A DNA stretch of 64,000 nucleotides. Origin: Symbiobacterium sp. Lineage in GTDB: Bacteria > Bacillota > Sulfobacillia > UBA995 > UBA9673. The first letter of the stretch is position 1, and the number at the start of each line of letters is the position of its first letter. The translations under genes and the position numbers were made by a program. A model generated the notes under the pieces. It saw nothing but the letters and a program-made list of their open reading frames with translations, was not told the DNA's origin and ran no database searches. Below are positions 27,182 through 48,119 of the stretch, piece after piece. The DNA lies in the NCBI GenBank assembly GCA_020725405.1, contig DYFB01000093.1, positions 3,183 to 67,182 on the forward strand, read 5' to 3'.

Positions 27182-27208
27182 CCGTGGGGTGGATTGGGGG
27201 AGTCGGAG

Positions 27209-28501
27209 ATGCCTGCAGCCGGAAAGGGGATCGGAGCCTTCAAGCCCCCCGGCCTCGCGGCCGAGGGTGAACGTCGCATCGCCTGGGCCTGGGCCGACAT
27301 GCCGGTCCTGAGGTCGATAAGGGAGGCCTGGGCGCGGACGCGACCCCTCGCCGGACTCCGGGTGGGGGCTTGTCTCCACGTCACCACCGAGACGGCCAAC
27401 CTCGTCCTGACCCTCAAGGAAGGCGGCGCCGAGGTCGCCCTCTGCGCCTCCAACCCCCTCAGCACCCAGGACGACGTGGCCGCCGCCCTGAGCCTGTCCC
27501 ACGGCATCCCGACCTACGCCGTGCGCGGCGAGGACCGGGAGAGCTATTACCGCCACATCGCAGCCGTCCTGGCCACGGCTCCCGACTTCACCCTGGACGA
27601 CGGGGCCGATCTCGTGACAACCCTCCACCAGGAGCGCCCCGAGCTCATCGCTGCTGGCCCCGGCGCTCCCGGAGTCCGGGCCGGCACAGAGGAGACGACC
27701 ACGGGGGTCATCCGTCTCCGGGCCATGGCCGCCGACGGGGCCCTCCGCTACCCGATCGTCGCCGTCAACGACGCCCGGACCAAGCACTGGTTCGACAACC
27801 GCTACGGGACCGGCCAGTCCACCATCGACGGCCTCCTCCGGGCCACCAACCGCCTTATCGCCGGGTCGGTCTTCGTCGTCGCCGGTTACGGCTGGGTGGG
27901 CCGCGGTATCGCCGCCCGGGCCCAGGGGATGGGCGCCCGCGTCTACGTGGTCGAGGCCGACCCCCTGCGGGCCCTTGAGGCGGCCATGGACGGCTTCCAC
28001 GTCACGGACATGGAAGGGGCCGCGCCCGTGGGCGACTTCTTCGTGACCGCCACCGGGAACGTGAGCGTCATCGACGTCCCGCACTTCGAGAAGATGAAGG
28101 ACGGGGCCGTCCTGGCCAACGCCGGGCACTTCAACGTGGAGATAAACCTCCAGGGCCTGGCCGGCCTGGCCGAGGAGGTGCGGGAGGTCCGCCGCGAGGT
28201 TAGGGAATACCGGCTCCCGGGCGGCCGCCGCCTCTACCTCGTCGCCGAGGGTCGTCTGGTGAACCTGGCTGCGGCCGAGGGGCACCCGGCCGCCGTCATG
28301 GACCTGAGTTTCGCCAACCAGGCCCTGGTCCTCGAGTGGCTGGCCGCGGGAGCGACCCTCGCTCCCGGCGTCCACGCGGTCCCGGAGGAGATCGACCGCC
28401 GCGTGGCCGAGCTCAAGCTGGCCAGCCTGGGAATGAGGGTCCAGCGCCTGAGCGACCGCCAGAAGGAGTACCTCGCGGGCTGGCAGGAAGGAACGGAGTA
28501 G
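27209..28501 (+). CDS. ahcY: Adenosylhomocysteinase (S-adenosyl-L-homocysteine hydrolase)
   Basis: GIPTYAVRGEDRESYY, NAD-binding VVAGYGWVGRGIA and NAGHFNVEI. ATG start 6 nt after gggggag (MPAAGK...). Confidence 0.95.
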   Translation: MPAAGKGIGAFKPPGLAAEGERRIAWAWADMPVLRSIREAWARTRPLAGLRVGACLHVTTETANLVLTLKEGGAEVALCASNPLSTQDDVAAALSLSHGIPTYAVRGEDRESYYRHIAAVLATAPDFTLDDGADLVTTLHQERPELIAAGPGAPGVRAGTEETTTGVIRLRAMAADGALRYPIVAVNDARTKHWFDNRYGTGQSTIDGLLRATNRLIAGSVFVVAGYGWVGRGIAARAQGMGARVYVVEADPLRALEAAMDGFHVTDMEGAAPVGDFFVTATGNVSVIDVPHFEKMKDGAVLANAGHFNVEINLQGLAGLAEEVREVRREVREYRLPGGRRLYLVAEGRLVNLAAAEGHPAAVMDLSFANQALVLEWLAAGATLAPGVHAVPEEIDRRVAELKLASLGMRVQRLSDRQKEYLAGWQEGTE

Positions 28502-28554
28502 AGGGCGAACGCGCCGGGCGGAACCTGACTCCGCGCCGGAACGGAGCCGCGACA

Positions 28555-29019
28555 GTGCTCGATTTCGCCAAGGCCCTGCCGCCCGAGCTGCACGTGCTCA
28601 TCGTGGCCGCCATACCCGTCATCGAGCTCCGGGGGGCCATCCCCCTCGGCCTGCATCTGGGCCTACCTCCGCTCGAGGCCCTGGGTCTGGCCTGGGCCGG
28701 CACGCTCGCCCCGATACCGCTTCTCTATCACCTACTCCTCCCGGGAGTCGCTCTCCTCAAGCGGACCCGGCTGCTAAGGCGCGTCACCGTGGCCTACGTC
28801 ACCCGCTCCGAGAGACAGAGCCTCCGCATCAAGAGGTACGGCCTACCCGGCCTGATCCTGTTCGTGTCCATCCCCTTTCCGGTGACAGGGGCCTGGACCG
28901 GCTGTCTCATCGCTCTCCTCCTCGGCTACTCCCTCCGGAAGACCATGTTCGCTATCGGCGTCGGCAGCCTCGTCGCCGGGGTTATCGTGACCGGGCTCGC
29001 GCGCCTGGCTGTCGGCTGA
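28555..29019 (+). CDS. Small polytopic membrane protein (COG2426 / small multidrug-export-like family)
   Basis: VLDFAKALPPELHVLIVAAIPVIELRGAIPLGL... with 4-5 TM segments. The ORF-track N-terminus at 28336 overlaps ahcY in another frame, so I rejected it and chose the in-frame GTG at 28555. Confidence 0.55.
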   Translation: MLDFAKALPPELHVLIVAAIPVIELRGAIPLGLHLGLPPLEALGLAWAGTLAPIPLLYHLLLPGVALLKRTRLLRRVTVAYVTRSERQSLRIKRYGLPGLILFVSIPFPVTGAWTGCLIALLLGYSLRKTMFAIGVGSLVAGVIVTGLARLAVG

Positions 29020-29073: not shown

Positions 29074-29141
29074 TCCCGGCACGGAGGAGATCCCGGCGCG
29101 GAGGAGGTCCCGGCGCGGAGGAGGTCCCGGCGCGGAGGAGA
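29074..29141. repeat. Perfect-to-near-perfect 17-bp tandem repeat x4 (tcccggcGcggaggagR), intergenic, carrying four SD-like GGAGG cores
   Basis: Read directly from the sequence: tcccggcacggaggaga / tcccggcgcggaggagg / tcccggcgcggaggagg / tcccggcgcggaggaga. Confidence 0.9.
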
Positions 29142-29240
29142 TGGGAGGGATGGGCAAGAAGTCTGTCGCCCAGGCGGGCGCCGGCTGCGCCCACCAAGCT
29201 ACCTGCATCCGGAGGGATTGCCATTCCTGTTCCCGTAATC

Positions 29241-30605
29241 GTGCGGCGCCTCTGGAGAAGAGCCGTACCGGGCCTCCTGCGGCCGGCGGCCGTGCTCGGC
29301 CTCGTCGTCGTCTTCGTGCTTCTCGCGGCCTTTGGCGTCCGCGGGTGCCATCCGCCCCGCGACCCGGCCGATTCCGGGAGCGCCTACACCCCTCCCGAGG
29401 GTCCGAGCGGGCCGACCTCCTTCCGCGGGGGTCCGGGACCCGAATCGGAGCTCGATCCCCTGAACATCTCCGTGGTGATGACCGACCGCATCTTCCAGGA
29501 GACCTACGAGGGGACGGTCGTCGCCCGGCTCGCGCCGGACGGGCGCTCCTTTATCCTGAGCAGCACGTTCCAGCGCGGCGGCCGGAAGTACTACGGGTTC
29601 CAGGTCTGCGACCTCCGGGGGGAAGTGCTCTGGGAGCACGTCTTCCCTGTCTCCGCCTACCGGCGGGCTGATGCTTTCTACCTCGCGGGCGGGCGGTACA
29701 TCGGAGCCGTAGCCTGCGACTACGACCAGGAAGGTGAAGTGCAGATACGGGCGGCCGACGGCCAGTTGGTTTTCACCCGGCCGATAGTCGGTTGGACGAT
29801 GCCGGTCATGTCCGCCCGGGGGTCGTGGCTGGCTCTCTTCAACCAGCAGCGAAACACCCTCAGCGTGTTCGGGCCGCCGAGATTCGAAACCGCCTGGAGC
29901 CTGAAGCTGGGGGAGGGGGCCCACGGCTTCTTCCTCGAGGACGGTCCCCGGTTCCTCCTCATCGAGAGCGGTCGGGCCAGGCTCTTCGGCGCCGGCGGCC
30001 AGGTTCTGTGGTCGGTGGCCATCCCCGGGGGTGGCTACTGGCGGGCCCTGGCCTCGCCGGACGGCCGGTATGTGGCGGCCACGACCGAGGACCCCGACAG
30101 CGCCGTCTACCTCTACTCGGCGGAGGACGGGAGCCTGGTGTGGAGCCAGTCCCTGGTCACGGGGGGCCACAAGAGCCTCGCCTTCTCACCCGACGGGGCT
30201 TCTCTCGTCGTCTACGACATCGGCCAGCACGCGGCCATCTACATGCTCGACGCCGCCGGCGGGAACATCGTCTGGCGCTTCTACCTCACGGCCTACGGCC
30301 GGACCGGCTCGATGATAACCGTTAAGGACCTGCAGTTCACTCCGGACGGCCGCTACATCGTCGCCGACATTGTCGAGTCGACCCTTGACGACCGCACCTA
30401 CGTGATGTACCATTATCTCCTCGCCCTGGCTCCGGACGGGCACGCCCTGTGGATAACCCCGCTGGGCTCGCAGGTGGACGTGGAGATGAACGCGGTCGCC
30501 GGGCTCCTCCTCATCATGACGAACAACGTCACCGACGGCTACGGGCTTATCCGGAACACCCTGACCCTGGTGACCTTCCTCGAGGACCTCACCTCGCCGC
30601 AGTGA
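29241..30605 (+). CDS. Membrane-anchored PQQ/BamB-like beta-propeller repeat protein
   Basis: N-terminal TM VLGLVVVFVLLAAF. Repeated blades with G-x-hydrophobic-W cores (GEVLWEHVF, GQLVFTRPI, GQVLWSVAI, GSLVWSQSL, GNIVWRFYL, GHALWITPL). Confidence 0.7.
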   Translation: MRRLWRRAVPGLLRPAAVLGLVVVFVLLAAFGVRGCHPPRDPADSGSAYTPPEGPSGPTSFRGGPGPESELDPLNISVVMTDRIFQETYEGTVVARLAPDGRSFILSSTFQRGGRKYYGFQVCDLRGEVLWEHVFPVSAYRRADAFYLAGGRYIGAVACDYDQEGEVQIRAADGQLVFTRPIVGWTMPVMSARGSWLALFNQQRNTLSVFGPPRFETAWSLKLGEGAHGFFLEDGPRFLLIESGRARLFGAGGQVLWSVAIPGGGYWRALASPDGRYVAATTEDPDSAVYLYSAEDGSLVWSQSLVTGGHKSLAFSPDGASLVVYDIGQHAAIYMLDAAGGNIVWRFYLTAYGRTGSMITVKDLQFTPDGRYIVADIVESTLDDRTYVMYHYLLALAPDGHALWITPLGSQVDVEMNAVAGLLLIMTNNVTDGYGLIRNTLTLVTFLEDLTSPQ

Positions 30606-30784
30606 GCCGGCGCTCTGATTGGGCCGGCCGGCGGCAAGCGGTCGGCGCGGGCGTTCGGCGCGGCGGACCGGCAAATCCTCCGCGACAAGGGTTGCACCCG
30701 CGGGCGTCGAACTCCACCAGCAGCGGAGCTCTGGCATATGGCTTTCCGGGACGGGTTCCGCTGGCTGTCGGGAGTCCCTGAGGA

Positions 30785-32773
30785 GTGCTTGAAGGAGCCA
30801 TGACCACCTCCCGCCGCCGGGGCCGCATCCTTCCCCCGTCGACCGTCCTCCAGAACCGCTACCGCATCCTCCGCCTGCACGACCAGGGCGGCTCAGCAAC
30901 CGTGTACCTCGCCGAGCGTCTCGGGGTGGATGAGAGCGTGCCCCTGGCCGTCAAGGAGCTCAACCCGGACGCGTTCAGCCTGGCCGAGTTCAAGAACGAA
31001 GTCAACGTCCTTTACTCGCTGAACCACCCCAACCTCCCCAAGGTCTATGACTTCTTCGAGCAGGACGGGAAGCACTACCTCGTCATGGACTTCGTGCGGG
31101 GTAAGACCCTCAAGCAGATGGTTCTCGAGGGCGGCGCTCTCGGCGAGGACGAGGCCCTGGACTACGCCCTCCAGATATGCGACATCATGACCTACCTCCA
31201 CCGGCGGGCCGAGCGCCGGATCATCCATCGAGACCTCAAGCCGTCGAACCTGATGCTGACTCACGCCGGCCAGGTGAAGCTCCTCGACTTCGGCATCGCC
31301 CGGGTGCCCGACAGCCGGCTCCCGGGCAATCTGCTCCACGCCTACACCGAGGACTACGCCTCCCCCGAGCAGAAGGAGAACCGGCCGACCGACCAGAGGA
31401 GCGATATCTACAGCTTCGGGGTGACCCTCCGCAGCCTTCTCGAGGGAAGGCTGCCGGGCGTCGATGAGGAGGCGCCCGCGGAGGACCTCTCCCCGCCCCG
31501 GCGCAGGCCCAGGGTGTCGCGGGAGATGAGGCGGATACTCGGACGCTGTCTCCGACCCGACCCCGCCGAGCGCTATCAGAGCTTTGAGGAGCTCGCCCGC
31601 GACCTCCGCTCCTACCGGCAGGCCCGGCGGACCAGAACGGCCCGCCGCCTCGGCTTCGCCGCCGCCGCTCTCGGGGTCGCCAGCCTTCTCTTCCTGGCGA
31701 AGGTCCTCTTCGGCCCCTCCCTCTACCCCATCCTGGGGCCCGAGCGCCTGCAGGTCGGGGTCGGGACGGCCCTGCAGGTCGGCCTCCCGGCCGGATGGGA
31801 AGGCAGCCTCGACGGTATCGTCTGGGACATCATCGACACCCAGGCTCCGGGCCAACCGCGCGAGGTCCAGAGGGGCCGGTACTGTTCATTCGTCTCGACC
31901 GATCTCGGCGTGTTCCAGGTCCAGGCCTACCTCGAAACGAACGGCCGCCGCCGGCTCCTGTCCACGGTGAAGAGGATAGAGGTCTACCCGGCCCTGAGCG
32001 TGCCGCACGAGGTTCTGGTGGGGCAGCGCTTCACTCTCTCCTCGCCCGGGGCGACGGCGGGGGGCGGCCGGGAGTACACCTGGCAGTGGACCATCCGCGG
32101 CCCGATTGAGGGCGCCGACGCCGCCTCGGCCCCGGTGGTGCTCCAGAAGTCCACGACCGAGCCGCGGCTGCGGGCGGAGATGGCGGTGGAGGGGACCTAC
32201 GCGGTGTGGCTGAGCGTCAACGTCAAGGCTCCCGGGGGCCTGGAAGTCTCGACCGCCGCGCCGGCGAAGACGCTGGCCGCGGTCACCCGGCTCGTCGTCG
32301 ACCCCAGCCGCGTCATCAGCCGCAACCCGAGCTTCGAGGAGCAGTACGGCGGCCAGCCGACCGACTGGGTCCTCGTCTATACCGCGCAGCTCACCTACGA
32401 CAAGACGATTGGCCGAACCGGCTCACGCTCCATCCGTTTCACCCCGAAGGCGGGTTCGCCCACTCCCTACGCCGTCCAGCTCCTCCCCCTCGAAGACGGG
32501 CGCTCCTACCGCGCTACCGTCTGGGTCAGGGGCGAGAACGTGGCCGACGGCGGGCGCATCTCCCTCGAGGCCCGCTTCCGGTCGCCCGTCGACGAGACCT
32601 ACGTTCTCAGCGACGAGACGGTGACCGTCGACTGGAGCGGGACTTTCGACTGGCGGCAGATGGCCGTCCACTTCTTCGTTCCCTCCGGAAGCGGCGTCAC
32701 CCTCGAGCTGTACCTGAGGTTCAGCGGCAGCGGGTCCGTCTGGTTCGACGACTGCGTGGTCGAGAAGCTCTGA
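30785..32773 (+). CDS. Transmembrane Hanks-type Ser/Thr protein kinase with an extracellular Ig-like plus carbohydrate-binding-module-like (CBM4/9-type) sensor region
   Basis: Kinase subdomains LAVKEL (Lys), HRDLKPSNLML, DFGIA, ASPEQ. Single TM GFAAAALGVASLLFLAKVLF. C-terminal domain SRNPSFEEQYGGQPTDWVLV...GSRSIRFTP...YRATVWVRGEN...GSVWFDDCVV resembles CBM_4_9 sugar-binding modules. Confidence 0.85.
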   Translation: MLEGAMTTSRRRGRILPPSTVLQNRYRILRLHDQGGSATVYLAERLGVDESVPLAVKELNPDAFSLAEFKNEVNVLYSLNHPNLPKVYDFFEQDGKHYLVMDFVRGKTLKQMVLEGGALGEDEALDYALQICDIMTYLHRRAERRIIHRDLKPSNLMLTHAGQVKLLDFGIARVPDSRLPGNLLHAYTEDYASPEQKENRPTDQRSDIYSFGVTLRSLLEGRLPGVDEEAPAEDLSPPRRRPRVSREMRRILGRCLRPDPAERYQSFEELARDLRSYRQARRTRTARRLGFAAAALGVASLLFLAKVLFGPSLYPILGPERLQVGVGTALQVGLPAGWEGSLDGIVWDIIDTQAPGQPREVQRGRYCSFVSTDLGVFQVQAYLETNGRRRLLSTVKRIEVYPALSVPHEVLVGQRFTLSSPGATAGGGREYTWQWTIRGPIEGADAASAPVVLQKSTTEPRLRAEMAVEGTYAVWLSVNVKAPGGLEVSTAAPAKTLAAVTRLVVDPSRVISRNPSFEEQYGGQPTDWVLVYTAQLTYDKTIGRTGSRSIRFTPKAGSPTPYAVQLLPLEDGRSYRATVWVRGENVADGGRISLEARFRSPVDETYVLSDETVTVDWSGTFDWRQMAVHFFVPSGSGVTLELYLRFSGSGSVWFDDCVVEKL

Positions 32774-32787
32774 GCTGACGACACGAT

Positions 32788-35700
32788 ATGAGCCATTCGG
32801 CAAAGGAAGGCCCCCCCCGCGGCGCGAAGAATACGGCTCACCTCTGGAGGAGCTCCGCCTTGCTCTCCGACCTCGGCCGCACAGCGAGAAGGCTCGGCTC
32901 GGCGAGACGGGTGGTCCGGGCGGCCCTGGCCGCTCTGGTCGCCGCCGGTCTCCTCCTCCCCTGCCTGCCCGCACCCCGACCGCTCCTGGCGGCGCCGCCG
33001 GCGACACCGCCCGGTGCGGCCTCGACGTCGTACGCCGATATCGACGGCCACTGGGCGCGCCCGGAGATAGAGGCCCTGCGGGCCCGTGGAGCCCTCCCCC
33101 CCTCGGGGGAGTTTTTCCGGCCCGACGAGCCGGTGACCCGCGGCGAATTCCTGGCCGACCTCGTCCGGGCCCTGGGTTACGGTCCCGAAGCGGCTGAGCT
33201 CGGCGATCACCCGCCGCCGTTCAGCGACGCCGGGGCCGGCGAGACCATCACTGGGCACCTGAGCGCCGGGGTCGAGCACGGTCTCGTCCGCGGCTACCCT
33301 GACGGGACCTTCCGGGCCGACTGGGAGATAACCCGGGCCGAGATCTCGACCATCCTCGTCCGCCTGAGCGGCCTTGCGCCGGACGCTCCCGGACTGGCCG
33401 CCCTGCCCTTTACCGACCGTTCCGACGTTCCGTCTTGGGCGGCGGGCTACATCGCCGTGGCCTACCAGCGGGGCATGGTCCGGGGGTACCCGGACGGCTC
33501 CTTCCGGCCTGAGAGCGGGGCTACCCGAGCCGAGGCCGCCTGCCTCATCTACCGCGCCGTCCGGCTGAGCGGCCGGCTGTTCGACCTTACCGGCCTGGTG
33601 CGCGAGGGCCCCGGAAGCGGGGACAGTCTCGCCGTGGACCTCTGGCCCGCGGGAACGCCCGGAAGCTACGTCGAAGAGGACGGGACTCTTGTCGTCCCCC
33701 TTCCGGATTCCCTCGGCCCCTCCCCGCCCGGGCCGACCGTCCGCGTCAGGATTTCATCGTCTTGCGTGACCTACCGCGATGGTCGACCGGCCGTCCTCTC
33801 CGCGGTGCGCCCGTTCGACGAGGTCGCCCTCATCCTCGACGAGACCGGGGCCGTCGCCTTCATCGAGGCCCTGCGCCCTGACGGTGTCGGTCTGGTCACC
33901 GGAGTCGGGCCCGGGCTCGCCTGGGTCGCTCTCACTTCCCTGGGCGGTGACGGGCCGGAGCGGGTCTTCGCCATCCTGCCCTGGGCGCCGGTCCTCCCTG
34001 CGGGGGCGGGGGGGCGTGCGCCGGTCCTGGGTGACCTGGTCTACTTCATCCTCGACAGCGCGAGCGGCGCCATTCGGGCTCTGGCCCTCATCGGTCCGGT
34101 CGCCGGGGCTTCCGCCGGCCCGGCCGCCGGATTCTCCGCCGACCCGGCCGCCGGGGCGTTCACCGGCCCGGCCGCCGGATTCTCCGCCGACCCGGCCGCC
34201 GGGGCGTTCACCGGCCCGGCCGCGACGACCGGCCCGGACGTCACCACGAGCGAGGTCATCGACCCGGCGGCCGCCCCGCCCCCGCTTCTGACGCCCGCGG
34301 CGGCCATGGCCCTGAGCGCCGCGGCCGTGAACGCCCCCGCGCTCAGGACCCTTACCGGGGCGAGCGGGCGGGGAGTAACCATCGCCATCGTGGACACCGG
34401 AGTGGACGTGAGTCACCCCGACCTCGCTATGACCAGCGCGTGGGAGCGGAAGATCGTCGACTGGCGCGACTTCAGCGGTGAGGGGGACGTGTCGACGACG
34501 AGGATATCGACGGCCGACGCGGTCGGGATTATCCAGACGGACCTCGGGCCGGCCAAGGTCACCGGCATCGTCTCCCAGAGCGGCTTCTACCACTCCGGGG
34601 TCTTCTCCGAAAGCCAGCTTCAACCGGGTGGGCCTCTCGGCGGGGACCTCGACCGGAACGGGCGGACCGGTGACCGCTTCCTGGTGGTCGCCGTCGACCG
34701 ACGCCTCTCCGGCGTCTACGACACCGTCTACGTGGACACCAACCGCAATCTCGACCTCACGGACGAGGTCCCCCTGCGCCCCTACCGCGATACGGCCCTC
34801 GTGGCCTGGTTCGGCGACGCGGGCCGACCGCGGTCCGAACGCTGCTCCTTCGTCCTGGCTGACATCCGCTCCGACGGCAACCGCGTGACCCTCGGCTTCG
34901 ACGGGAACGGTCACGGGACGCACGTCGCCGCCATCTCTTCGGCCTACGGCTCCTACCGCGGCGGGCTCGACGGTCTCGCCCCGGGCACCCGCGTCATGGC
35001 CCTGAAGGCCCTCCGCTCCTCAGGCGACGGGACCTGGGGGGACATCGTCCGGGCCGTCAGCTACGCGGCCCAGAAGGGGGCCGAGATCATCGTCCTCAGC
35101 GTGGCCAACCTCTCGCACGGGGGAGACCTATCCGCGGAGACGGCGGCCATCGCCGCCGTGGCCGCGCGCTACGGCGTGCTGATCGTCTCGGCCGCTGGCA
35201 ACACGGGGCCGGGCGTGGGCACCGCCCGGGGGCTCGGCGCGTCCCCCGGCATTCTTACCGTCGGGGCCGCGCTGGACCAGGCTATGTGGCAGGCATACTT
35301 CGGCTACGCCGTGGAGGGGCGGACCGTCTGGCCGTTCAGCGCCGTGGGGCCGCGCCCCGACCTTTCCGGAGGCCCGGATGTCCTCGCTCCGGGCTGCGCC
35401 CTCTCGGCCGCGCCACTGTGGCTCGAGCCTCCCGGCTACGTCCAGTCCGAGGGGACGAGCATGGCCGCGCCCCATGTCGCCGGAGTGGCCGCCCTGCTCC
35501 TCGAGGCCCTGCGGCAGACCGGCCGGCCTGCTCCGGTGAGTCTTGTGAGTCTTGTCGAGGAGGCCATCCTGGCCGGAGCCCGGCCTCTGGAGGGCTACTC
35601 CTTCGTCGAGCAGGGGCGGGGGGCGGTCGACGCTCTCCGCTCCTGGGAGTGGCTGGCCGGACCGGCGGCGGCGACCGGGAGCGGTGCGGCGCCGCGCCCC

Positions 35701-37440
35701 CGCGGAACCCTCGGCCTCACCCCGAAGGGCGTCTACGACCGCGACGGATCGTCCGCCAGGGTTCTCGCTGAACTCACGGCGAGAGCCCCGGGCCTGCCGG
35801 CCTGGCTTGACCTCTCCGCCGCGGAGCCGTGGGTCGTCGCGGAAAGGCCGAAGCTCGCCCTACCGGTGGGACTCCCTCGCTCCGTAGGGCTGTCCCTCCG
35901 ACCGGACGGGGAAGGCCTCCACTCCACCTTGCTGGTCGGGTCGCAGGGTTTGGCCGAACTCGTTTCCCTGCCGGTGACGGTGGTCGTTCCCGTGGAGTTC
36001 TCCGCCGCTTCCGGCTGGCGGATCTCCGAGGAGGGGGTCCTCGGCCCAGCCCGCCTGGACCGGTGCTTCTTCCGGGTGCCCCCGGGGGCGAGCGCCCTCG
36101 AGGTTTCCTTCGGTGTCGCCGACGCCGGCGGCGGGAACCACGCCGGTCGGGTCCGGCTCTTCCTCTACGGGCCGGACAGCCACCTGGCGGCGGCCACGGG
36201 CTACGTGGGCCAGGGGACCTCCGACGGCTTCGCCTCTCTGGTCCTCGAGGAACCGGCCGCGGGCGTCTGGGAGGCCGTAGTCTACAGCTCCGCAGCCTTG
36301 TCGGCCTTCGGGCTGGACGATTCGCACTACTGGCTTGAGGCGGCTCTATCGGGGGTCGTCTATGACCTTTCCGGCGCCGGGTGGGAGGTGACCGTCGCGT
36401 CCCCGAGCGTGAGCCGGGTCCGGGCCGACCTGCCTCTCGTCAACATCGGAGACGCCTTCGAGGTCGCCCTCGAGGGTTTCGGTCTCTGGCCGCGCGCCTG
36501 GGACCCCCGGCCCGAAGCGGTCACTCTCGGCTCCGGGGAGACCCTGCTCCGGGTACTCCCGCCCCTGGAGGGGCGCTCCGGGCTCCTCCGGGTTCAGCTC
36601 TGCAACGTCCACGCTGAAGCCTGGGATGAGTCCGAGCCCCCGCCGGATCTCGACCTGACCGTCTTCCAGCGCACCGACACGGGCTGGCGGGAGTTCGCCA
36701 GGTCGTCCGCACCTGGTGTCCGCCAGGAAATTGTTGAAATCGTCGACCCGCCGGGGGGTGAGTACGCCGTCCAGGTAACGGCCTCCGGTGGAGCCGGGTG
36801 GGTTTCCTTCGAGCTCAGGTCCCAGTGGCTCCCGGCCGGCGGTCAGGTTACACCGGTGGTTTCGGAGCTGATCCTCCCCGCCGGAGCCCGCCGGCCTGTG
36901 GCCGTGGTTGTCAGCGTACCGACCGGTGAGGGGGCCCGCCTCGGAGCCCTGAGGCTGAGGGACCGCACCGGCAGTTTCGACCTCCGGGGCGGCCTTTCGG
37001 ACACCGTCAGTCTGCTGCCTCTTACGGTCAGACGCACCGCCCAGTCCATCCGGGTCGTTCTCTCCCAGACCTCGCTCGAGCCGGGCCCGAACCTCCTGAC
37101 CTTCCGGGTCCTGACCGCAGACGGGGTGCCGGTCGCCCGCTTCGCCCTGGAAACCGGGGGTCGTCGCTACGAGGCTGCCGGCGGTTTCGTGACGGTGCCC
37201 TGGCCGGCGGCGGACGAGCCCGGACCGGCCAGGGTCTGGGTGCGAACTGTCCTTCCGGATGGGACAGGGTCGGGGTGGCTGTTTCACCTGCCGGTGGTGT
37301 TAACCCAGCCGGGAGAGCGGGGGTCCCGGCCCCTGGGGCCGGGGGCCCCGGCCTGGCTTGAAGCCGAGGGTTTCCGGCCCCCGGAGCTGGACGAGCTCAG
37401 GGAGCTTTTCGACACGGCCCTCGCGGGAGGGGTCTCCTGA
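32788..37440 (+). CDS. SLH-domain-anchored subtilisin-like serine protease (S8 family), 1550 aa, multidomain
   Basis: Signal peptide. Three SLH repeats (YADIDGHWARPEIEALRARGAL..., FSDAGAGETITGHLSAGVEHGLVRGYPDG, FTDRSDVPSWAAGYIAVAYQRGMVRGYPDG). S8 triad VTIAIVDTGVDVSHPDL (D), GNGHGTHVAAI (H), GTSMAAPHVAGVAALL (S). Long C-terminal beta-rich domains. Confidence 0.9.
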   Translation: MSHSAKEGPPRGAKNTAHLWRSSALLSDLGRTARRLGSARRVVRAALAALVAAGLLLPCLPAPRPLLAAPPATPPGAASTSYADIDGHWARPEIEALRARGALPPSGEFFRPDEPVTRGEFLADLVRALGYGPEAAELGDHPPPFSDAGAGETITGHLSAGVEHGLVRGYPDGTFRADWEITRAEISTILVRLSGLAPDAPGLAALPFTDRSDVPSWAAGYIAVAYQRGMVRGYPDGSFRPESGATRAEAACLIYRAVRLSGRLFDLTGLVREGPGSGDSLAVDLWPAGTPGSYVEEDGTLVVPLPDSLGPSPPGPTVRVRISSSCVTYRDGRPAVLSAVRPFDEVALILDETGAVAFIEALRPDGVGLVTGVGPGLAWVALTSLGGDGPERVFAILPWAPVLPAGAGGRAPVLGDLVYFILDSASGAIRALALIGPVAGASAGPAAGFSADPAAGAFTGPAAGFSADPAAGAFTGPAATTGPDVTTSEVIDPAAAPPPLLTPAAAMALSAAAVNAPALRTLTGASGRGVTIAIVDTGVDVSHPDLAMTSAWERKIVDWRDFSGEGDVSTTRISTADAVGIIQTDLGPAKVTGIVSQSGFYHSGVFSESQLQPGGPLGGDLDRNGRTGDRFLVVAVDRRLSGVYDTVYVDTNRNLDLTDEVPLRPYRDTALVAWFGDAGRPRSERCSFVLADIRSDGNRVTLGFDGNGHGTHVAAISSAYGSYRGGLDGLAPGTRVMALKALRSSGDGTWGDIVRAVSYAAQKGAEIIVLSVANLSHGGDLSAETAAIAAVAARYGVLIVSAAGNTGPGVGTARGLGASPGILTVGAALDQAMWQAYFGYAVEGRTVWPFSAVGPRPDLSGGPDVLAPGCALSAAPLWLEPPGYVQSEGTSMAAPHVAGVAALLLEALRQTGRPAPVSLVSLVEEAILAGARPLEGYSFVEQGRGAVDALRSWEWLAGPAAATGSGAAPRPRGTLGLTPKGVYDRDGSSARVLAELTARAPGLPAWLDLSAAEPWVVAERPKLALPVGLPRSVGLSLRPDGEGLHSTLLVGSQGLAELVSLPVTVVVPVEFSAASGWRISEEGVLGPARLDRCFFRVPPGASALEVSFGVADAGGGNHAGRVRLFLYGPDSHLAAATGYVGQGTSDGFASLVLEEPAAGVWEAVVYSSAALSAFGLDDSHYWLEAALSGVVYDLSGAGWEVTVASPSVSRVRADLPLVNIGDAFEVALEGFGLWPRAWDPRPEAVTLGSGETLLRVLPPLEGRSGLLRVQLCNVHAEAWDESEPPPDLDLTVFQRTDTGWREFARSSAPGVRQEIVEIVDPPGGEYAVQVTASGGAGWVSFELRSQWLPAGGQVTPVVSELILPAGARRPVAVVVSVPTGEGARLGALRLRDRTGSFDLRGGLSDTVSLLPLTVRRTAQSIRVVLSQTSLEPGPNLLTFRVLTADGVPVARFALETGGRRYEAAGGFVTVPWPAADEPGPARVWVRTVLPDGTGSGWLFHLPVVLTQPGERGSRPLGPGAPAWLEAEGFRPPELDELRELFDTALAGGVS
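34115..34210 (+). repeat. Perfect 48-bp in-frame tandem duplication inside the S8 protease gene (encodes AGFSADPAAGAFTGPA x2, with partial third copies on both sides)
   Basis: Identical 48-mers at 34115-34162 and 34163-34210. Confidence 0.9.
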
Positions 37441-37823
37441 TGCCGCAGGCTGTCGCAACTCGCAAGGAGAGGATACTTGTCGTCGACGACGAAGAGAGCA
37501 TGCGGGAGCTGCTCCTGGCCCTGTTCCGCAAGAACGGGTACCAGACCGCCGCCGCCCGGAACGCCGCTGAGGCCCTCGCCCTGGCCGCGGAGATGGACCC
37601 GACCGTGGCCGTCATCGACGGTCACCTGCCCGGCGGAGGGGGCGTCGCTTTCATCCGGAAGTTCCGGGGTAGCTTTCCCGAGATACGGACCGTCTTGATG
37701 ACCGCCTACGACAGTCCGGAGCTGCTCGAGGCTGCTTCCCCGGCCGGGGCCGGGGCGTGGGTCCGGAAACCCTTCGACCTGCTTGAGCTACTCGACAAAG
37801 TGGAGAGCCTCTGCCGGATCTGA
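37440..37823 (+). CDS. Stand-alone response-regulator receiver domain (CheY-like), translationally coupled to the subtilase
   Basis: RILVVDDEESMRELL...TVAVIDGHLPG (acceptor Asp)...VLMTAY...WVRKPF. All receiver motifs are intact. ATG overlaps the subtilase stop as TGATG. No output domain. Confidence 0.85.
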   Translation: MPQAVATRKERILVVDDEESMRELLLALFRKNGYQTAAARNAAEALALAAEMDPTVAVIDGHLPGGGGVAFIRKFRGSFPEIRTVLMTAYDSPELLEAASPAGAGAWVRKPFDLLELLDKVESLCRI

Positions 37824-37863
37824 CCGCTCCCGAACCTTGTCCCGCACGGAGGTAAGACCCAGA

Positions 37864-40089
37864 GTGGAAGGCTTCATAGCCGCCGCCTGTCAGACAGCCG
37901 CCACGGCCGAGCCGGCCGAGGCCGTCCTCAAGGCCGCCGCGGCCGGGGCCCGCCTGGTGGTCCTTCCGGCCCGGGTTCTGGAGAGGTCCTGGAGCCCGCG
38001 CTCCGGCTCTCGCCCGGCCGGGCCCTCCCGGCCCGGCCCGGGTCGGCGGTCGGAGCCCCGACCCCTACCTGGGCGCGAAGAGCTCCTCTCCCGCGCGGCC
38101 GACCTCGCCCGGCGCGCCGGGTGCTATCTTGCCCCCGGCACGGTGGTCGTTCCGCCGTCCGGCGGAGGCCCGGCTTCCCCGGTGGCCTGGCTGTTCTCCC
38201 CGACGGGCGAGCTCCTGGGTGAGCAGGTCGCTACGCACCTGACCCGGGAGGAGGAGGCTGCCGGGGCGGTCCCGGCTGACGAGCTCAGGGTCTTCGACGT
38301 CGACGGGGTCGGCGTGGGTCTCCTCGTCGGCCTCGACGTCTGGGTGCCGGAGGTCAGCCGCATTCTCGCCCTGGAAGGCGCCGTCGTCCTCCTCGCCCAC
38401 CTCGCCCTGCCCGCGCCCTACTCCGAGGCCCGGCAGCTCGCGGGAGTCTGGCAGGAGGTGCAGCAGAACCAGGTCTTCGGCGTCGAGGCCTGCCTCGTGG
38501 GGTCCCGGGACGGGACCACGTACGCCGGTCGCAGCGCCGTGACCGCCCCCTGCGAGATGACTCCCGGCGAGAGCGGCTTCGTGGTCCGGGCTCCCTCCCC
38601 GGAAACCGCGGTGACCCTGCTCGGGGCCATCGACCTCGCGGCCAGGCGGCGGGTCATCGAGAGTTACGACATCTTCGCCGAGCTCAACGTCGGTCTCTAC
38701 CGGCGGGTCTTCCCACAGGTCTACCTGGCCGCCCGCGAGGCCGGAGCCGCCGGGCCCCCCACCGAGCTGGCCGCCGGGCCTCCCACCGAGCCGACCGCCG
38801 GGCCTCCCACCGAGCCGGCCGGCAGGGACCGGGGCGCAGCGGGACAGCCTCCGGGCGACCGGCGTCCGAGGAGGCGTCCGGGGAAAGGACCGGAGAACCT
38901 CGGGTTCAAGGAGCGGCTCTTCCGGCGCTATCTCACCTTCGTCTCCCGTCCGCGCGTAGTCCGGCGAGCGGTCGCCGCTCTCCGGCTCACGCCTCACCCG
39001 AAGCGGCGGAAGAAAGGCCGGTGGTGGACGGAGCCCGGCCTCGGACGGCCCCGCGCGACCTCCAGGGGGGGCGCCGCTGCCGGCGAGCCCCGGCCGCCGC
39101 GGACGGTGCGGGTCGCGGCCATCCAGCTGGAGTCCTTCTACGCGAGGAACGTCACGGACTACGTCCTCCGTCTCGGAGAACGGTTCCGCGAGGCCGTCGC
39201 CGAGGGGGCCGACCTCGTTGCTTTCCCCGAGTACGTTACCCAACCCCTCATCGGGCTCATCCCCGGGGTCGCGCCGCTGGAGGGGGCGGAGAAGGGCCGC
39301 GACCGGAGCCAGGCCAACCCGGGACCGGACAAGGCCGCGGTGGCCCTGGCCGACGTCACCCGGTTCATGGAGCCCATCTTGAGGAACGTCTACTTCACCT
39401 TGTTCGCGGCCCTGGCCGCCGCGGCGCGGGTCTACGTTCTGGCCGGCGCGACCCCGATGCCCGGGGCCGGCGGCAAGGTCTACAACGTGAGCCACCTCTT
39501 CGGACCGGACGGAAGGCTCATCGGAGCCCAGCCGAAGGTGCACCTCTTCCCCCGGGAGCGGACGGAGGGGCTCTCGCCGGGGGAGGACCTCACGGTCTTC
39601 GAGACGGCCGTCGGGCGGCTGAGCCTGCCGGTGTGCATGGACGCCACCTACTTCGAGACCTACCGACTGGCCGCTCTCCTCGGAGCCGAGATGCTCGGCG
39701 CCCCCGTAGCCAACGCCGAGCCCTACAACTGCTGGAAGCTCCTTCGCGGAGCCTGGCCGCGGGTCCAGGAGACCCCGGTCTACGCCGTGCAGTCGACCCT
39801 CGTCGGCGAGTTCCTCGGCCAGGAGCTCAGCGGGAGGGCGGCCGTCTTCGCCCCGCACGAGCTCACTCCGGCGGGCGACGGGGTCCTGGCTTCGTCGGCC
39901 CAGCCCACCGGCCCCGGGCTGGCCGTGGCCGACCTCGATCTTGACGCTCTCGCCCGCTTCCGCGAGGAGCACCCGGTCTTCCCGCGGCTCAACCTCGCCC
40001 TCATCCGGCGCTACCTGCCCCGGATCTACGAGGACTTCGCCCGGCGGCGGGCGGCTTCCGACCAGGGCCAAGAGGAGTCCCGCCCGTGA
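37864..40089 (+). CDS. Tandem carbon-nitrogen hydrolase (nitrilase-superfamily) protein. N-terminal domain catalytically degenerate, C-terminal domain intact
   Basis: Domain 2: VRVAAIQLE...LVAFPEY (Glu)...SLPVCMDATYFE (Cys). Domain 1 aligns (FIAAACQ...ARLVVLP...VGLLVGLDVWVPEV) but has Gly where the Cys should be. Low-complexity linker. Start chosen at the GTG after SD ggagg. The ORF-track TTG at 37783 overlaps the receiver gene. Confidence 0.7.
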   Translation: MEGFIAAACQTAATAEPAEAVLKAAAAGARLVVLPARVLERSWSPRSGSRPAGPSRPGPGRRSEPRPLPGREELLSRAADLARRAGCYLAPGTVVVPPSGGGPASPVAWLFSPTGELLGEQVATHLTREEEAAGAVPADELRVFDVDGVGVGLLVGLDVWVPEVSRILALEGAVVLLAHLALPAPYSEARQLAGVWQEVQQNQVFGVEACLVGSRDGTTYAGRSAVTAPCEMTPGESGFVVRAPSPETAVTLLGAIDLAARRRVIESYDIFAELNVGLYRRVFPQVYLAAREAGAAGPPTELAAGPPTEPTAGPPTEPAGRDRGAAGQPPGDRRPRRRPGKGPENLGFKERLFRRYLTFVSRPRVVRRAVAALRLTPHPKRRKKGRWWTEPGLGRPRATSRGGAAAGEPRPPRTVRVAAIQLESFYARNVTDYVLRLGERFREAVAEGADLVAFPEYVTQPLIGLIPGVAPLEGAEKGRDRSQANPGPDKAAVALADVTRFMEPILRNVYFTLFAALAAAARVYVLAGATPMPGAGGKVYNVSHLFGPDGRLIGAQPKVHLFPRERTEGLSPGEDLTVFETAVGRLSLPVCMDATYFETYRLAALLGAEMLGAPVANAEPYNCWKLLRGAWPRVQETPVYAVQSTLVGEFLGQELSGRAAVFAPHELTPAGDGVLASSAQPTGPGLAVADLDLDALARFREEHPVFPRLNLALIRRYLPRIYEDFARRRAASDQGQEESRP
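38749..38820 (+). repeat. 24-bp in-frame tandem repeat x3 in the CN-hydrolase interdomain linker (encodes AGPPTE[LP][AT])
   Basis: gccgggccYcccaccgagcYgRcc x3, read directly from the sequence. Confidence 0.85.
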
Positions 40090-42092
40090 AGCGGCTGACG
40101 GTCCCTGAGGAGATGGACTTCGCCCGCCGCCTCTACCCGACCGGGAACCATTTCGTCTCACTCCCCGTTGTCGAGGCCGCCGATGCTTCCGTGGACCGGG
40201 TGGGCGTCCTCCATATGGGAGCGGCCGGCCTCGTGGAGTTCGGCGGGCCCCAGGCCGAGCTCGGGGCCGAGACCCTCCCGGCCCTGGAGCCGCTTATCAG
40301 ACCCTTCATCCTGATCGGCGGTCGGACGTCCGGTCCGGGCCGCGGCGCCACGGCGAGCCCATCCTGGCGGCGCCTCTGGGATTGGGTCCCGGCCTTTGAG
40401 TGGCGTGACGAGCCCAGCGGACTTGTCCTCAAGGGGACGCTGCTTGCCCCTGTCTGGGCGGCCCGCGAGGGTCTCCAGTCGCACAAGGGGTTCGTCTACG
40501 TCCTGGAGGTCTCCGGCCCGGCCGCCGGCGGCGCGCCGCCTGAGGACCTCCGACTCGGCCTCACCCTGACGTGGGGGGACCTTCTGGAGACCGTCTACAC
40601 CTCAAGACGCCTCCCCGCCGCTCTGAGCGTCAGGCGGGACCGCTGGACCGGCGGTCCGGTGCTCGAACCCCGCGCGGGCTCAGGGGCCGGCCCGGCGGCC
40701 CTGGCTGTCTCCTTCTCCGTCCCGGGCGAGGACGTGGAGTGGACGGCCCGGACCGACGAGGCCGGAGTCATCCGGGTGGAGATGACCGCGCGCCCGCGGG
40801 GAGGAGCGGCAGCCTTCTACTTCGGCCTCAACCGGGAGGGGGACGGGGCCCGGACGGTTGCCGTCGACCTCGCCCGCCACGGCTGGGAGAGCCTTCTCCG
40901 GGCCACGGGGGCCGCCCTCGCTCCCCTGCGGCGGCCGGTGGCCGGGGAGGACCGCTTGGGAGCCGCCGGCGAAGAATCGAGAGTCCTGGGCGGCCGGCTG
41001 AACCTGAACCTCCTCTTTAACTACTTCTTCGCCGCCGGGCGAACCATCGATACCGAGGAGCTCGTCCTGGTCACCAGCCGGAGCCCGCTGTACTACGTCA
41101 GCGCGGCCTTCTGGGCAAGGGACGCCCTGCTCTGGAGCCTCCCCGGCCTCCTTCTTGTCGACCCCGGCCTGGCCGAGGAAGCTCTGGGCGAGGCCTTCGG
41201 CCGCTACTTCCGTCACGCCGGCATCCACTCGCTCTACATGGACGGAACCCTCCTCTACCCGGGATTCGAGCTGGACGAGCTCGCCGCCTACCCCATCGCC
41301 CTCTGGCGCTACGTCCGGTCGACGGGGGACGTCGCCATCCTGGGACGGCGGGGTCTCGGGCCGAAGCTTCGGCGGATTCTCGACCTCATGGAGGAACAGG
41401 CCCATCCGGACCCGAATATCCACTTGTACCGGACGTTCCTCCTGCCCTCGGACGACCCGGCCACTCATCCCTACGTGACCTACGACAACGTCATGGCCTG
41501 GCGCGCCTTGCTCTGCGCGGCCGACCTTCTGGAGTGGGCGGAGGGCCGGGACGGGGCGGAGCTGAGAGACCGGGCGGAGAGGGTCAGGGCTTCCGTCTAC
41601 CGCCACCTTGTGGTCGACGGCCCGGGAGGCCCGGTCTTCGCTTGGTCGGCCGACCTGGAGGGCGGGGTGGAGCTGGGCGACGAGCCCCCGGGAAGCCTGG
41701 AGCTCCTGCCGTACTACGGCTTCTGCTCGCGGGAGGATGAGGTCTGGCGCCGGACGGTCGGGTGGATCCACTCGCGGGAGAACCCCTACCGCTACCTCGA
41801 CGTCCCGTTCCCGGGGGTGGGGTGCCCGCACTCGCCCCATCCGTTCGTCATGAGCTTATTCAACGCTCTCCTGGGGGGTCTTCCCGAGAGGATCGCCGAG
41901 GCCCGGTCGGTGCTGCTCAAGGCTCCGCTGGATACCGGGCTCGCCTGCGAGGCCTTCGACCGCCGGACCGGGGAGGTTAAGACGGGAGCGGCCTTCGCCA
42001 CGTGCGCGGGGTTCCTGGCCTACGCCATGCACCGGGTTTTCGGGCGGCCGGCGCATGGAGAATACAGGAATGGTCCCGGGTTTGTGGAATAG
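40086..42092 (+). CDS. Hypothetical 668-aa protein, putative six-hairpin (alpha/alpha)6 glycosidase-like; family not assignable from sequence alone
   Basis: Central block LNLNLLFNYFFAAGRTIDTEELVLVTSRSPLYYVSAAFWARDALLWSLPGLLLVDPGLAEEALGEAF is reminiscent of GH63/GH125/GH15-type barrels. The GTG start overlaps the upstream stop. Confidence 0.4.
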   Translation: MKRLTVPEEMDFARRLYPTGNHFVSLPVVEAADASVDRVGVLHMGAAGLVEFGGPQAELGAETLPALEPLIRPFILIGGRTSGPGRGATASPSWRRLWDWVPAFEWRDEPSGLVLKGTLLAPVWAAREGLQSHKGFVYVLEVSGPAAGGAPPEDLRLGLTLTWGDLLETVYTSRRLPAALSVRRDRWTGGPVLEPRAGSGAGPAALAVSFSVPGEDVEWTARTDEAGVIRVEMTARPRGGAAAFYFGLNREGDGARTVAVDLARHGWESLLRATGAALAPLRRPVAGEDRLGAAGEESRVLGGRLNLNLLFNYFFAAGRTIDTEELVLVTSRSPLYYVSAAFWARDALLWSLPGLLLVDPGLAEEALGEAFGRYFRHAGIHSLYMDGTLLYPGFELDELAAYPIALWRYVRSTGDVAILGRRGLGPKLRRILDLMEEQAHPDPNIHLYRTFLLPSDDPATHPYVTYDNVMAWRALLCAADLLEWAEGRDGAELRDRAERVRASVYRHLVVDGPGGPVFAWSADLEGGVELGDEPPGSLELLPYYGFCSREDEVWRRTVGWIHSRENPYRYLDVPFPGVGCPHSPHPFVMSLFNALLGGLPERIAEARSVLLKAPLDTGLACEAFDRRTGEVKTGAAFATCAGFLAYAMHRVFGRPAHGEYRNGPGFVE

Positions 42093-42180: not shown

Positions 42181-42831
42181 TTGAGGCTCTTCCTCGATAC
42201 AGCCAACATCGACGAGATCCGCGAAGCTGTCAGCTGGGGAGTCATTTCCGGGGTGACGACCAACCCCACCCTGGTAGCCAAGGAGCAGGGCCGGAGCTTC
42301 AGCGACATCGTCTCTGAGATCACCGCCATAGTTCCGGGACCCGTCAGTGTCGAGGCCGTCAGCCTGGACGCCGCGGCCATGATCGAGGAGGCCCGCCGCC
42401 TGTCGGCCATGGCCGGCAACGTCGTCGTTAAGATACCCATGACGCCCGAAGGGCTCAAGGCGGTGAAGGTCCTGGCCGGCGAGGGCGTGCGGACCAACGT
42501 CACCCTTGTCTTCTCGGCCAACCAGGCCCTGCTGGCCGCCCTGGCCGGGGCGACCTATGTCAGCCCGTTCGTCGGGCGCCTTGACGACATCGGACACGAG
42601 GGCCTCGAGGTCGTGCGGGATACCGCGGACATCTTCCAGCTCCACGCGCTCGAGACCGAGATCATCGCCGCGAGCATCCGCCACCCGCTGCACGTGATGG
42701 ACGCGGCTAAGGCCGGGGCCGACATCGCCACCGTGCCGATGAAGGTGCTCAGGGCTATGGCCGCCCACCCGCTGACCGACCGCGGGGTGGAGATGTTCCT
42801 CGCCGACTGGGCGAAAGTGAAGAAAGGGTAG
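42181..42831 (+). CDS. tal: Transaldolase / fructose-6-phosphate aldolase (short TalC/FSA subfamily)
   Basis: [35 protein letters not shown] and Schiff-base Lys region VVVKIP. SD gaaggagg before the TTG. Confidence 0.9.
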
Positions 42832-43032
42832 CCGGGGCTGACCCCGGAGTTATAGCCGGTCGTCCCCCGGACTATGCTAGTACAGCCGGGTTACCCCGTT
42901 GTAACCTTCCGTTGTCGACAGGGTCAGCACGAACGTCAGGACATGTCATCCAGCTTCCAACCGGGACTCATCCCCTGTTGTCTTCCGTTTACCGCACGGC
43001 GCCTGTGACGCTAGAGGACGAGGTGACTAAGG

Positions 43033-44289: not shown

Positions 44290-44510
44290 CCCGGAAAGTC
44301 CCGGCCTCTCCCCCGGCCCGCGGCTCGGCTTTCCGGGGCCACGGGCGACCCGGGAGTTCCGGCCGGAGACAACCGTTTATGCACAATAGCGAGGCGTCGT
44401 GTGGGGTCCACGCGGCGCCTCGCCGCATCCCGGGGGATGAAAAGGACGACCGCATACCAGAATAACTACCGGACCGGGAACTGAGCATAATCTAGTAAGG
44501 GAGGTACCCC

Positions 44511-45602: not shown

Positions 45603-45648
45603 CCCCATCCGGGTCCGGAACCCTTCTCCCTCTGCCGCTCGCGCTCGC

Positions 45649-45678
45649 TTGGACACCGGGCGGGGCCCGTGCTATAAT
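45649..45678 (+). promoter_or_regulatory. Sigma-A-like promoter: TTGGAC - 18 nt - TGcTATAAT (extended -10)
   Basis: Read from the sequence upstream of rpmE. It shares the 11-mer cgtgctataat with the site at 50581. Confidence 0.5.
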
Positions 45679-45798
45679 CAGTGTTGCTTTGCCCGAGGCG
45701 CTCGGCGCTCCGCCCGCGGTGTTCGGCCCGACGCCGCCCGAGCCCTCAGGCGGTCCCGGCCGGCGGCCGGGGTACTCCTGTCGGAGAAGGTGCCGGAC

Positions 45799-46134: not shown

Positions 46135-46190
46135 CCCGGGCCGCACGTCTACCGCCGGGCCGGCTACCTCTCGGCCGCGCCCGCTTGAAG

Positions 46191-48100: not shown

Positions 48101-48119
48101 GAGGGAGCCCCCGACAGCC

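Follow-up and report, generated by a model that had tools for sequence, protein, structure and literature searches.

Six open reading frames (ORFs) follow one another on the plus strand at positions 29241-42092 of a 64,000-nucleotide stretch of Symbiobacterium sp. DNA (contig DYFB01000093.1; the whole stretch is called the window here), and they raise the question of whether such dissimilar genes belong to one system. They encode a membrane-anchored beta-propeller (g1), a Hanks-type Ser/Thr kinase (g2), a subtilase tethered by SLH domains (g3), a stand-alone receiver (g4), a tandem CN-hydrolase (g5) and a glycosidase-like protein (g6). An earlier note on this DNA had read them as one cell-surface module, in which kinase and propeller sense glycan status and signal through the receiver, while protease, amidase and glycosidase remodel the surface. 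We consider it probable that the block instead consists of three units, g1-g3, g4 and g5-g6, which are juxtaposed only in this lineage. These units would be independent of each other and joined on a conserved chromosomal backbone of the Bacillota.

The conservation of the block was assessed with a g5-anchored profile. By tblastn, 243 candidate stretches were confirmed, and they resolved into 80 species-level loci. When 26 window proteins were searched for by tblastn, g1-g4 were found near g5 in only three of the 80 loci (L001, L014 and L018). In these three, AdoHcyase, the small-multidrug-export gene, tal, rho (92-93% identical), M23, L31, the ABC transporter and DUF1385 are collinear too. Since the flanking housekeeping genes are equally collinear, the order of the six genes is conserved no better than that of its flanks. 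At least 77 other species-level genomes carry a g5 homologue with no kinase, S8 protease or propeller nearby, in contexts of the polA-mutM-ytaF-coaE-SLT-icd type (SLT being a transglycosylase). The earlier note had proposed to look for a conserved neighbourhood. The full set of kinase, SLH-S8 protease, receiver, CN-hydrolase and GH125-type gene was found only where the flanks are collinear, and deeper comparisons split it into three.

The arrangement on one strand with tight junctions had also been taken to speak for a module. Two of the junctions are indeed real overlaps, namely TGATG at 37440 (stop of g3 and start of g4) and GTGA at 40086 (g5 and g6). The overlap between S8 and receiver genes is not conserved, however: L001, L014 and L018 have a gap of ~10-45 nt and a separate ribosome-binding site (RBS). 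The third junction (32773-32788) depends on the start chosen, as g2 and g3 are 14 nt apart only if the first ATG of g3 is used. For g3, the gene call deposited with this contig (P0151, 1526 aa) uses TTG 32860 instead, preceded by a GGAGGAG RBS (32848-32854). This start appears more likely and gives a gap of 86 nt. For g5, the most likely start is GTG 37864, which follows a GGAGG site and lies 40 nt after g4. The likely start of g2 is ATG 30800; the g2 orthologue P0143 begins MTTSRRRG. Of the 45 genes in the window (G+C ~70%), 40 lie on the plus strand, including every gene from 25 kb to its end. Of the 33 same-strand junctions outside the block, 9 likewise overlap or are no longer than 15 nt, some of them between functionally unrelated genes (ABC permease/DUF1385, Sua5-phosphatase/RpiB, epimerase/AdoHcyase). 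The strand uniformity and tight junctions of the block are at the background level for the window. A promoter and terminator scan of the block gave counts near the shuffled expectation and no convincing site inside it. Intergenic folding gave only z-scores above -1.6, without U-tracts, and revealed no operon boundary.

A Pfam scan of the six ORFs returned the same domain contents as the earlier note. Hydropathy analysis detected a single transmembrane or signal segment per protein in g1 (residues 8-37), g2 (289-313) and g3 (42-63), by which all three are envelope-exposed, and no such segment in g4, g5 or g6. The first gene, g1 (29241-30605, +), encodes a PQQ/BamB-type beta-propeller (PQQ_2, 4.8e-10) that is membrane-anchored through its N-terminal segment, as had been described. 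Just upstream of it, the intergenic region at 29074-29142 contains 4.1 copies of a 17-bp unit (TCCCGGCGCGGAGGAGA, 94% match).

The kinase g2 (30785-32773, +; Pkinase, 2e-40) has intact catalytic motifs in its translation: LAVKEL with the VAIK-like lysine, HRDLKPSN and DFG. Its best partial match in NCBIfam is the Stk1/PASTA kinase family, by the kinase domain only. Hanks kinases with extracellular sensors are known, such as PrkC and PknB with PASTA domains and PknD with a beta-propeller. Like these, g2 combines an N-terminal Hanks kinase, a single transmembrane segment and a C-terminal ectodomain. In contrast to PrkC and PknB, this ectodomain consists of a PKD-like part and a predicted jelly roll of the carbohydrate-binding module (CBM) 4/9 type rather than PASTA domains, and in contrast to PknD the propeller is a separate neighbouring protein and the gene is embedded in an envelope locus with SLH and S41 genes. 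The carbohydrate-binding ectodomain of the earlier note stands at the level of the fold only, since the match to CBM_4_9 itself falls below the curated cutoff (E 0.0072; 17.1 bits, where 25.9 are required). In an exhaustive HMMER search, the C-terminal ~150 residues had 529 relatives, and those sampled were CBM_4_9 proteins (1e-21 to 1e-28). The top Foldseek matches of the ectodomain were CBM4/16/22/61 structures, with a template modelling (TM) score of ~0.6 over ~135 residues. The AlphaFold2 (AF2) model used for this has low confidence (predicted local distance difference test, pLDDT, of 50) and served as supporting evidence only. These three lines of evidence point, with weak to moderate strength, to a CBM4/9-type jelly roll in the C-terminal ~150 residues, and binding of carbohydrate is predicted accordingly at fold level. 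A word-indexed protein search with the ectodomain found four matches, all from the same lineage; more distant orthologues were reached only by exhaustive search, which recovered full-length kinases down to ~29% ectodomain identity.

The description of g3 (32788-37440, +) as a giant SLH-tethered subtilase was fully borne out. It carries three SLH domains (8.6e-30) and a Peptidase_S8 domain (1.5e-35) with the motifs D536, H709 and S891, the Asp and His being ~170 residues apart; its long beta-rich C-terminal region of ~600 residues has a weak PPC match only. A linker of g3 contains an in-frame repeat (34096-34223; 48 bp, 2.7 copies; AGFSADPAAGAFTGPA repeats). The best PDB match is Tk-SP from Thermococcus, and tripeptidyl peptidase II (TPP II) ranks third (3lxu, 2.6e-23). 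We rejected an assignment to TPP II because the likeness is limited to the insert between Asp and His and this third-rank match. With cell-envelope subtilases and TPP II, g3 shares the S8 triad, wall anchoring and, in the case of TPP II, the large insert. It differs from them in its anchoring by three N-terminal SLH domains, its length of 1526-1550 aa and its ~600-residue C-terminal region.

Homologues of g1-g3 co-recur in altered order, alongside further SLH proteins and an S41 protease of the CtpB type, where the kinase is only 33-46% identical. This S-layer or cell-envelope locus (SLH proteins, S41, kinase, propeller, SLH-S8) was found in at least eight divergent lineages with changed gene order. 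The order is SLHx3-S41-STK-propeller-SLH-S8-REC-x-4HBT-BKACE-tal-rho in L167 (STK, Ser/Thr kinase; REC, receiver), propeller-STK-SLH-S8-CuAO_N1-CN-CN-GH125 in L168/169, C15-SLH-SLH-S41-STK-SLH-SLH-SLH-SLH.S8 in L170/171 and C15-SLH-S41-STK-SLH-SLH-CuAO_N1-SLH-REC-4HBT-BKACE in L172. Shorter versions are SLH-STK-S41 in L173, S41-STK-x-SLH/fn3 in L174 and S41-STK-M14-propeller-g3-like in L175. L081 and L082 (Rho 69% identical) have S41-SLH-(x)-propeller-SLH.S8-(BKACE)-tal-rho, with a g1 homologue as the propeller, and kinase, receiver, CN-hydrolase and GH125 are all absent from this locus. Homologues of g1 adjoin S8 or kinase genes in L081, L082, L167, L168 and L175. The S41 gene adjoins the kinase orthologue in L167, L170/171, L172, L173, L174 and L175, and in L167 and L170-L174 the pair is flanked by homologues of the window's own SLH proteins. 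Across these lineages, it is the CtpB-like S41 protease rather than the S8 protease that accompanies the g2 kinase family most constantly.

The window itself contains these partners outside the block. Two SLH-domain (S-layer-like) proteins are encoded at 1863-6531 (+; SLH, 9e-17 and 8e-14), and the CtpB-like protease with PDZ, S41 and PG_binding_1 domains at 9196-10866 (+), 18 kb upstream of the kinase. A glycan-biosynthesis island, followed by AdoHcyase and the small-multidrug-export gene (together 10890-29019), parts S41 from the kinase; it has lower G+C at third codon positions (GC3), and mixed strands at 19-25 kb. We propose that g1-g3 are the distal part of an S-layer or cell-envelope locus which includes the SLH proteins and the S41 protease, and that the ~18-kb island was inserted between S41 and g1 in this lineage. 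Order varies while proximity is kept, which is some evidence for a functional tie between g1-g3 and S41. A role of g1-g3 at the S-layer or cell envelope is plausible from their domains and surroundings. The ectodomain of g2 would probably sense wall or S-layer glycan, and the propeller and the tethered subtilase would act beside the kinase, g3 probably by processing envelope proteins. The sensor-effector idea of the earlier note is thus partly supported, for g1-g3 only, and is not supported for the Spo0F-like g4 and for g5-g6, a portable pair without export signals.

Full-length g3 orthologues occur in ~14 clusters at 46-97% identity, below which identity is ~30%. More distant SLH-S8 genes lie in wall-polymer loci (P0037, P0040; CsaB, LytR, WecG, TagO) or in unrelated contexts. 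In L163 and L166, a distant SLH-S8 gene lies inside a secondary-cell-wall-polymer locus (CsaB pyruvyl transferase, LytR-CpsA-Psr, WecG/TagA, TagO-like GT4, MurJ-like flippase), which fits the view that SLH-S8 enzymes generally belong to neighbourhoods of S-layer anchoring. A small Cu_amine_oxidN1 protein recurs in the envelope locus (L168, 8256-8912; L172, 17200-18051), and in L168 its gene occupies the slot held by the receiver in the window.

The receiver g4 (37440-37823, +) is a protein of 127 aa with Response_reg (1e-20) as its sole domain, and the phospho-acceptor residues D10/D11/D54/T82/K104 (B. subtilis numbering) are all matched (DDDTK). In a search against 177,635 distinct PDB sequences, the top eight matches were all Spo0F (1.1e-20 to 4.9e-18), separated by ~7 orders of magnitude from the next receiver (1.4e-13). 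Identity to B. subtilis Spo0F is 32-34% (34% over 115 residues, ungapped). TAL_FSA is encoded two ORFs downstream of g4. Davidson et al., who verified Spo0F of D. acetoxidans, define a Spo0F orthologue as a stand-alone receiver no more than four ORFs from fbaA, TAL_FSA or CTP synthase (PMC6136694), and through TAL_FSA this neighbourhood rule would count g4 as one. The rho-rpmE genes of B. subtilis are preceded by spo0F, fbaA-ywjH and glpX (bioRxiv 10.1101/2023.12.01.569620). The tal-rho-rpmE-prfA order of the window resembles the order spo0F-fbaA-tal-...-rho-rpmE-...-prfA of that species, and g4, a single receiver domain of ~125 residues, lies upstream of these genes as Spo0F does. The receivers in the same slot of L172 and L167 also match Spo0F best; that of L172 is 42% (alignment) to 45% (tblastn) identical to B. 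subtilis Spo0F. In our own alignment, the specificity residues of these slot-mates are QGLMEVD (L172) and QAMFELD (L167).

The presence of the receiver tracks tal/BKACE, not the kinase or S8. It occurs without an S8 catalytic gene in L172, there is none beside S8 in L081, L082 and L168, and in L173 and L174 no receiver showed up around the kinase. No histidine-kinase domain (HisKA/HATPase_c) was detected in the 45 window ORFs scanned, so that g4 is not part of a classical two-component pair at this locus. A metagenome scan with an alignment of four receiver orthologues was uninformative on the relation to Spo0F, as the matches listed were generic receiver paralogues only (at most 44% identity), with no tal, S8 or CN-hydrolase neighbours among them. 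On these similarities and this position, g4 is rather probably a Spo0F-type receiver, somewhat diverged in this lineage. It would be the positional counterpart of Spo0F in the ancestral slot upstream of tal-rho-rpmE-prfA. As in a phosphorelay, its aspartate would be phosphorylated by histidine kinases and the phosphate passed on via Spo0B to Spo0A, and it would not serve the Hanks kinase. The signalling through an output-less receiver that the earlier note proposed is not supported: the reading we favour is that g4 is not the output of g2.

The g4 start is preceded, at a distance of 26 nt, by a perfect Spo0A-box heptamer (TGTCGAA, minus strand, 37408-37414). It is probably there by chance: 4.3 such sites would be expected in the window, which has 7, and neither L001 nor L014 conserves this one. 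A SpoIID homologue (59521-60522, +; PF08486, 1.4e-19) shows only that some sporulation-type genes are present on the contig. It is followed by an M23 peptidase, which may be SpoIIQ-like, and an MreB/Mbl gene (59521-61876), an order that presumably resembles murAA-spoIID-...-mbl of B. subtilis.

The pseudo-plus-active tandem CN-hydrolase of the earlier note was confirmed for g5 (37864-40089, +), which is identical to the deposited protein P0001; a sister metagenome-assembled genome carries the same genes with generic annotation only (MEW6031977/79). In an alignment of 19 sequences, the N-terminal domain lacks the Glu-Lys-Cys triad, which marks it as a pseudo-enzyme domain by sequence, and E456, K558 and C591 of the C-terminal domain are invariant. 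The linker between the two domains contains an in-frame repeat (38746-38821; 24 bp, 3.2 copies; AAGPPTEP repeats). The AF2 model is confident (pLDDT 80.8, predicted TM score 0.81), and the nearest proteins by Foldseek and hidden Markov model searches are the PH0642 amidase, Nit2, N-carbamoylputrescine amidase and D-carbamoylase. At least 38 species-level loci encode the dead and the live half in a fused ORF; in at least 32, among them L014 and L018, each half has its own gene, the two being adjacent and in different frames. This Rosetta-stone pattern indicates an obligate pair of pseudo-enzyme and enzyme. With nitrilase-superfamily amidases, g5 shares the alpha-beta-beta-alpha fold and the triad in the C-terminal domain; it differs from them in the triad-less N-terminal partner, fused or split.

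The glycosidase-like nature of g6 (40086-42092, +) was upheld as well: it is related to GH125 (PF06824, 5.8e-18). Of the (alpha/alpha)6 catalytic domain of these metal-independent alpha-mannosidases, the match covers the C-terminal half only (profile positions 205-405 of 414), and it leaves an N-terminal extension of ~300 residues. The N-terminal 438 residues matched no Pfam family even at E 10. A profile of the g6 family (35 sequences) aligned with GH125 exo-alpha-1,6-mannosidase structures (CpGH125, SpGH125, BT3781) over the last ~200 residues at 1e-23 to 1e-25. D456/D457 (PSDD) and E622 are invariant in these 35 sequences; in the alignment they fall on the PSDD and HE(S/T)F stretches of the known structures, which are reported to hold the catalytic Asp and Glu (Gregg et al. 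2011). In contrast to GH125 enzymes of ~430 aa, members of the g6 family have 640-700 aa, with ~390 N-terminal residues of no detectable similarity. They further differ in being predicted to be cytoplasmic and in their genetic pairing with a CN-hydrolase and often a GPH transporter.

Flanks of at least 4 kb on each side of g5 are available in 37 loci. A g6 homologue lies no further than 2.3 kb from g5 in 22 of these, with five or more different arrangements, and 14 of the 37 encode an MFS_2/GPH sugar transporter (MFS_2, 9e-56). The transporter gene lies between or beside the CN-hydrolase and GH125-like genes in L009, L022, L023, L026, L039, L040, L043, L046 and others; the cassette in the window lacks it. 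The genes g5 and g6 form a portable pair of cytoplasmic type, and their linkage is clearly more than synteny. A literature search for GH125 and nitrilase together found no paper linking the two families. Surface remodelling by g5 and g6, as the earlier note had it, was rejected, as neither has an export signal. On the same ground, and from the frequent GPH partner, the most likely role would be the cytoplasmic breakdown of an imported or recycled glycoside bearing an amide or carbamoyl group. In the window, a putative amidase of one dead and one live domain would thus act with a GH125-related inverting glycosidase, the pair having been inserted between the receiver and tal.

Several points weigh against this division into three units. 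All lineages with g1-g3 homologues have the same backbone, so that their co-occurrence may partly be inherited gene order. Kinase, propeller, S8 and receiver stand together in two far-apart lineages, the window group and L167, and a link between g4 and the envelope genes is possible. The strongest markers of Spo0F, fbaA and pyrG, are absent from the window, and the specificity residues of g4 (ESMLALD) are identical to those of Spo0F (QGILEVD) at only two of seven positions, with four conservative changes (own alignment). Unlike Spo0F of B. subtilis, g4 also has a CN-hydrolase/GH125 pair between itself and tal and a start that overlaps an S8 stop codon. L168 again has CN-CN-GH125 right after S8, for which a functional link or one shared insertion event could be responsible; it suggests that the insertion of g5-g6 is older than the split of this lineage from that of the window. 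Finally, a single transcript for all six genes is possible.

If inherited synteny explained everything, all six genes, g1-g3 included, would be functionally unconnected neighbours on a slowly rearranging chromosome. Every lineage in which kinase, S41 and S8 co-occur does have SLH genes upstream and tal-rho downstream, and the two genes also occur apart: L081 and L082 have S8 but no kinase, and in L172, L173 and L174 no S8 lies within 10 kb of the kinase. We nevertheless regard this explanation as unlikely, because order shifts while proximity stays: kinase and propeller, and likewise kinase and S41, occur in both orders, SLH is fused to or split from S8, and M14 or SLH genes are inserted. Moreover, all members of the envelope locus are envelope-exposed, and the linkage of g5 and g6 persists in unrelated contexts.

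Slightly less likely still is a four-gene envelope module, g1-g4, in which the receiver would be a lineage-specific partner of the kinase and S8, for example through Ser/Thr phosphorylation by the kinase, and g5-g6 would be passengers. The position of the receiver directly after S8 or a g3-like SLH gene in the window group, L167 and L172 agrees with it, as do the overlap with the S8 stop codon in the window and the drift of g4 from the Spo0F consensus. In the same three lineages, however, the receiver also sits in the Spo0F slot, as the closest gene to 4HBT-BKACE-tal or tal, and all three receivers match Spo0F best; in addition, S8 stands without a receiver in L081, L082 and L168, and no receiver was seen with the kinase in L173 and L174. 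We also considered that the envelope locus could be an undescribed surveillance system for S-layer or wall glycan whose kinase Ser/Thr-modifies the Spo0F-like receiver as well, tying entry into sporulation to the status of the envelope. We think this improbable; if it were true, the drifted specificity residues and the S8 overlap of g4 would be adaptations to kinase-receiver cross-talk. Such signalling, which the earlier note called unusual for a Hanks kinase, would be less so than claimed, as response regulators phosphorylated on Ser/Thr are known (PrkC-WalR, Stk1-CovR, PknH-DosR). The single six-gene module is the least probable of all and very much so: it can draw on the one strand and short junctions, on the whole block being kept in L001, L014, L018 and ~14 metagenomic protein clusters at 46-97% identity, and on L168, which retains propeller-STK-SLH-S8 followed by CN-CN-GH125, but its flanks are just as conserved, its strand and junction features are at background, its overlap of S8 and receiver is not conserved in L001, L014 and L018, its Spo0F-like receiver follows tal/BKACE, and g5-g6, lacking export signals, live apart from the other genes in at least 77 genomes.

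In the surroundings of the block, the backbone markers tal, rho, M23/LysM, rpmE, the ABC transporter, DUF1385 and prfA lie at 42181-51783 (+; Pfam), and the window continues tal-rho-M23-rpmE-...-prfA-prmC-sua5/PTP-rpiB-...-murA-spoIID-M23-mreB, which we take to be the same backbone as in B. subtilis. At 52873-54687, one ORF of 604 aa fuses Sua5/YwlC (threonylcarbamoyl-AMP synthase) with a YwlE-like low-molecular-weight phosphatase domain; in B. subtilis the two are presumably separate neighbouring genes. The small-multidrug-export ORF (28336-29019) overlaps AdoHcyase by 166 nt and has its Pfam match from residue 97, and the L31 ORF (45649-46134; 161 aa) from residue 52. The longest-ORF starts of both are probably too far upstream. 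Upstream of the block, a surface-glycan locus is present at 10.9-27 kb as had been noted, although not directly adjacent, since AdoHcyase and the small-multidrug-export gene intervene. In its middle (19140-24883; NTP-transferase, GT1, WecG, GT1, Wzy), GC3 is 0.74-0.79 against 0.87-0.92 elsewhere and strands are mixed, which suggests a horizontally acquired glycan cassette.

All parts of the block come from known families, and none is categorically new. New as members or variants are the CBM-type Hanks kinase in an S-layer locus, the divergent Spo0F-like receiver and the dead/live CN-hydrolase with its GH125-like partner. For the reading of such loci, same-strand tight packing in a high-GC Bacillota backbone is weak evidence for a module, and conservation in close relatives needs to be compared with that of the flanking housekeeping genes. 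For the organisms, the analysis points to a Hanks kinase family with a CBM4/9-like ectodomain whose genes, in uncultured high-GC Bacillota, lie consistently beside that of a CtpB-like S41 protease within S-layer loci, and to a widespread cassette, in at least 80 species-level genomes, of a dead/live CN-hydrolase and a GH125-related enzyme, often with a GPH transporter. The Spo0F-like g4, in turn, would add to the evidence that components of the phosphorelay exist outside the Bacilli.

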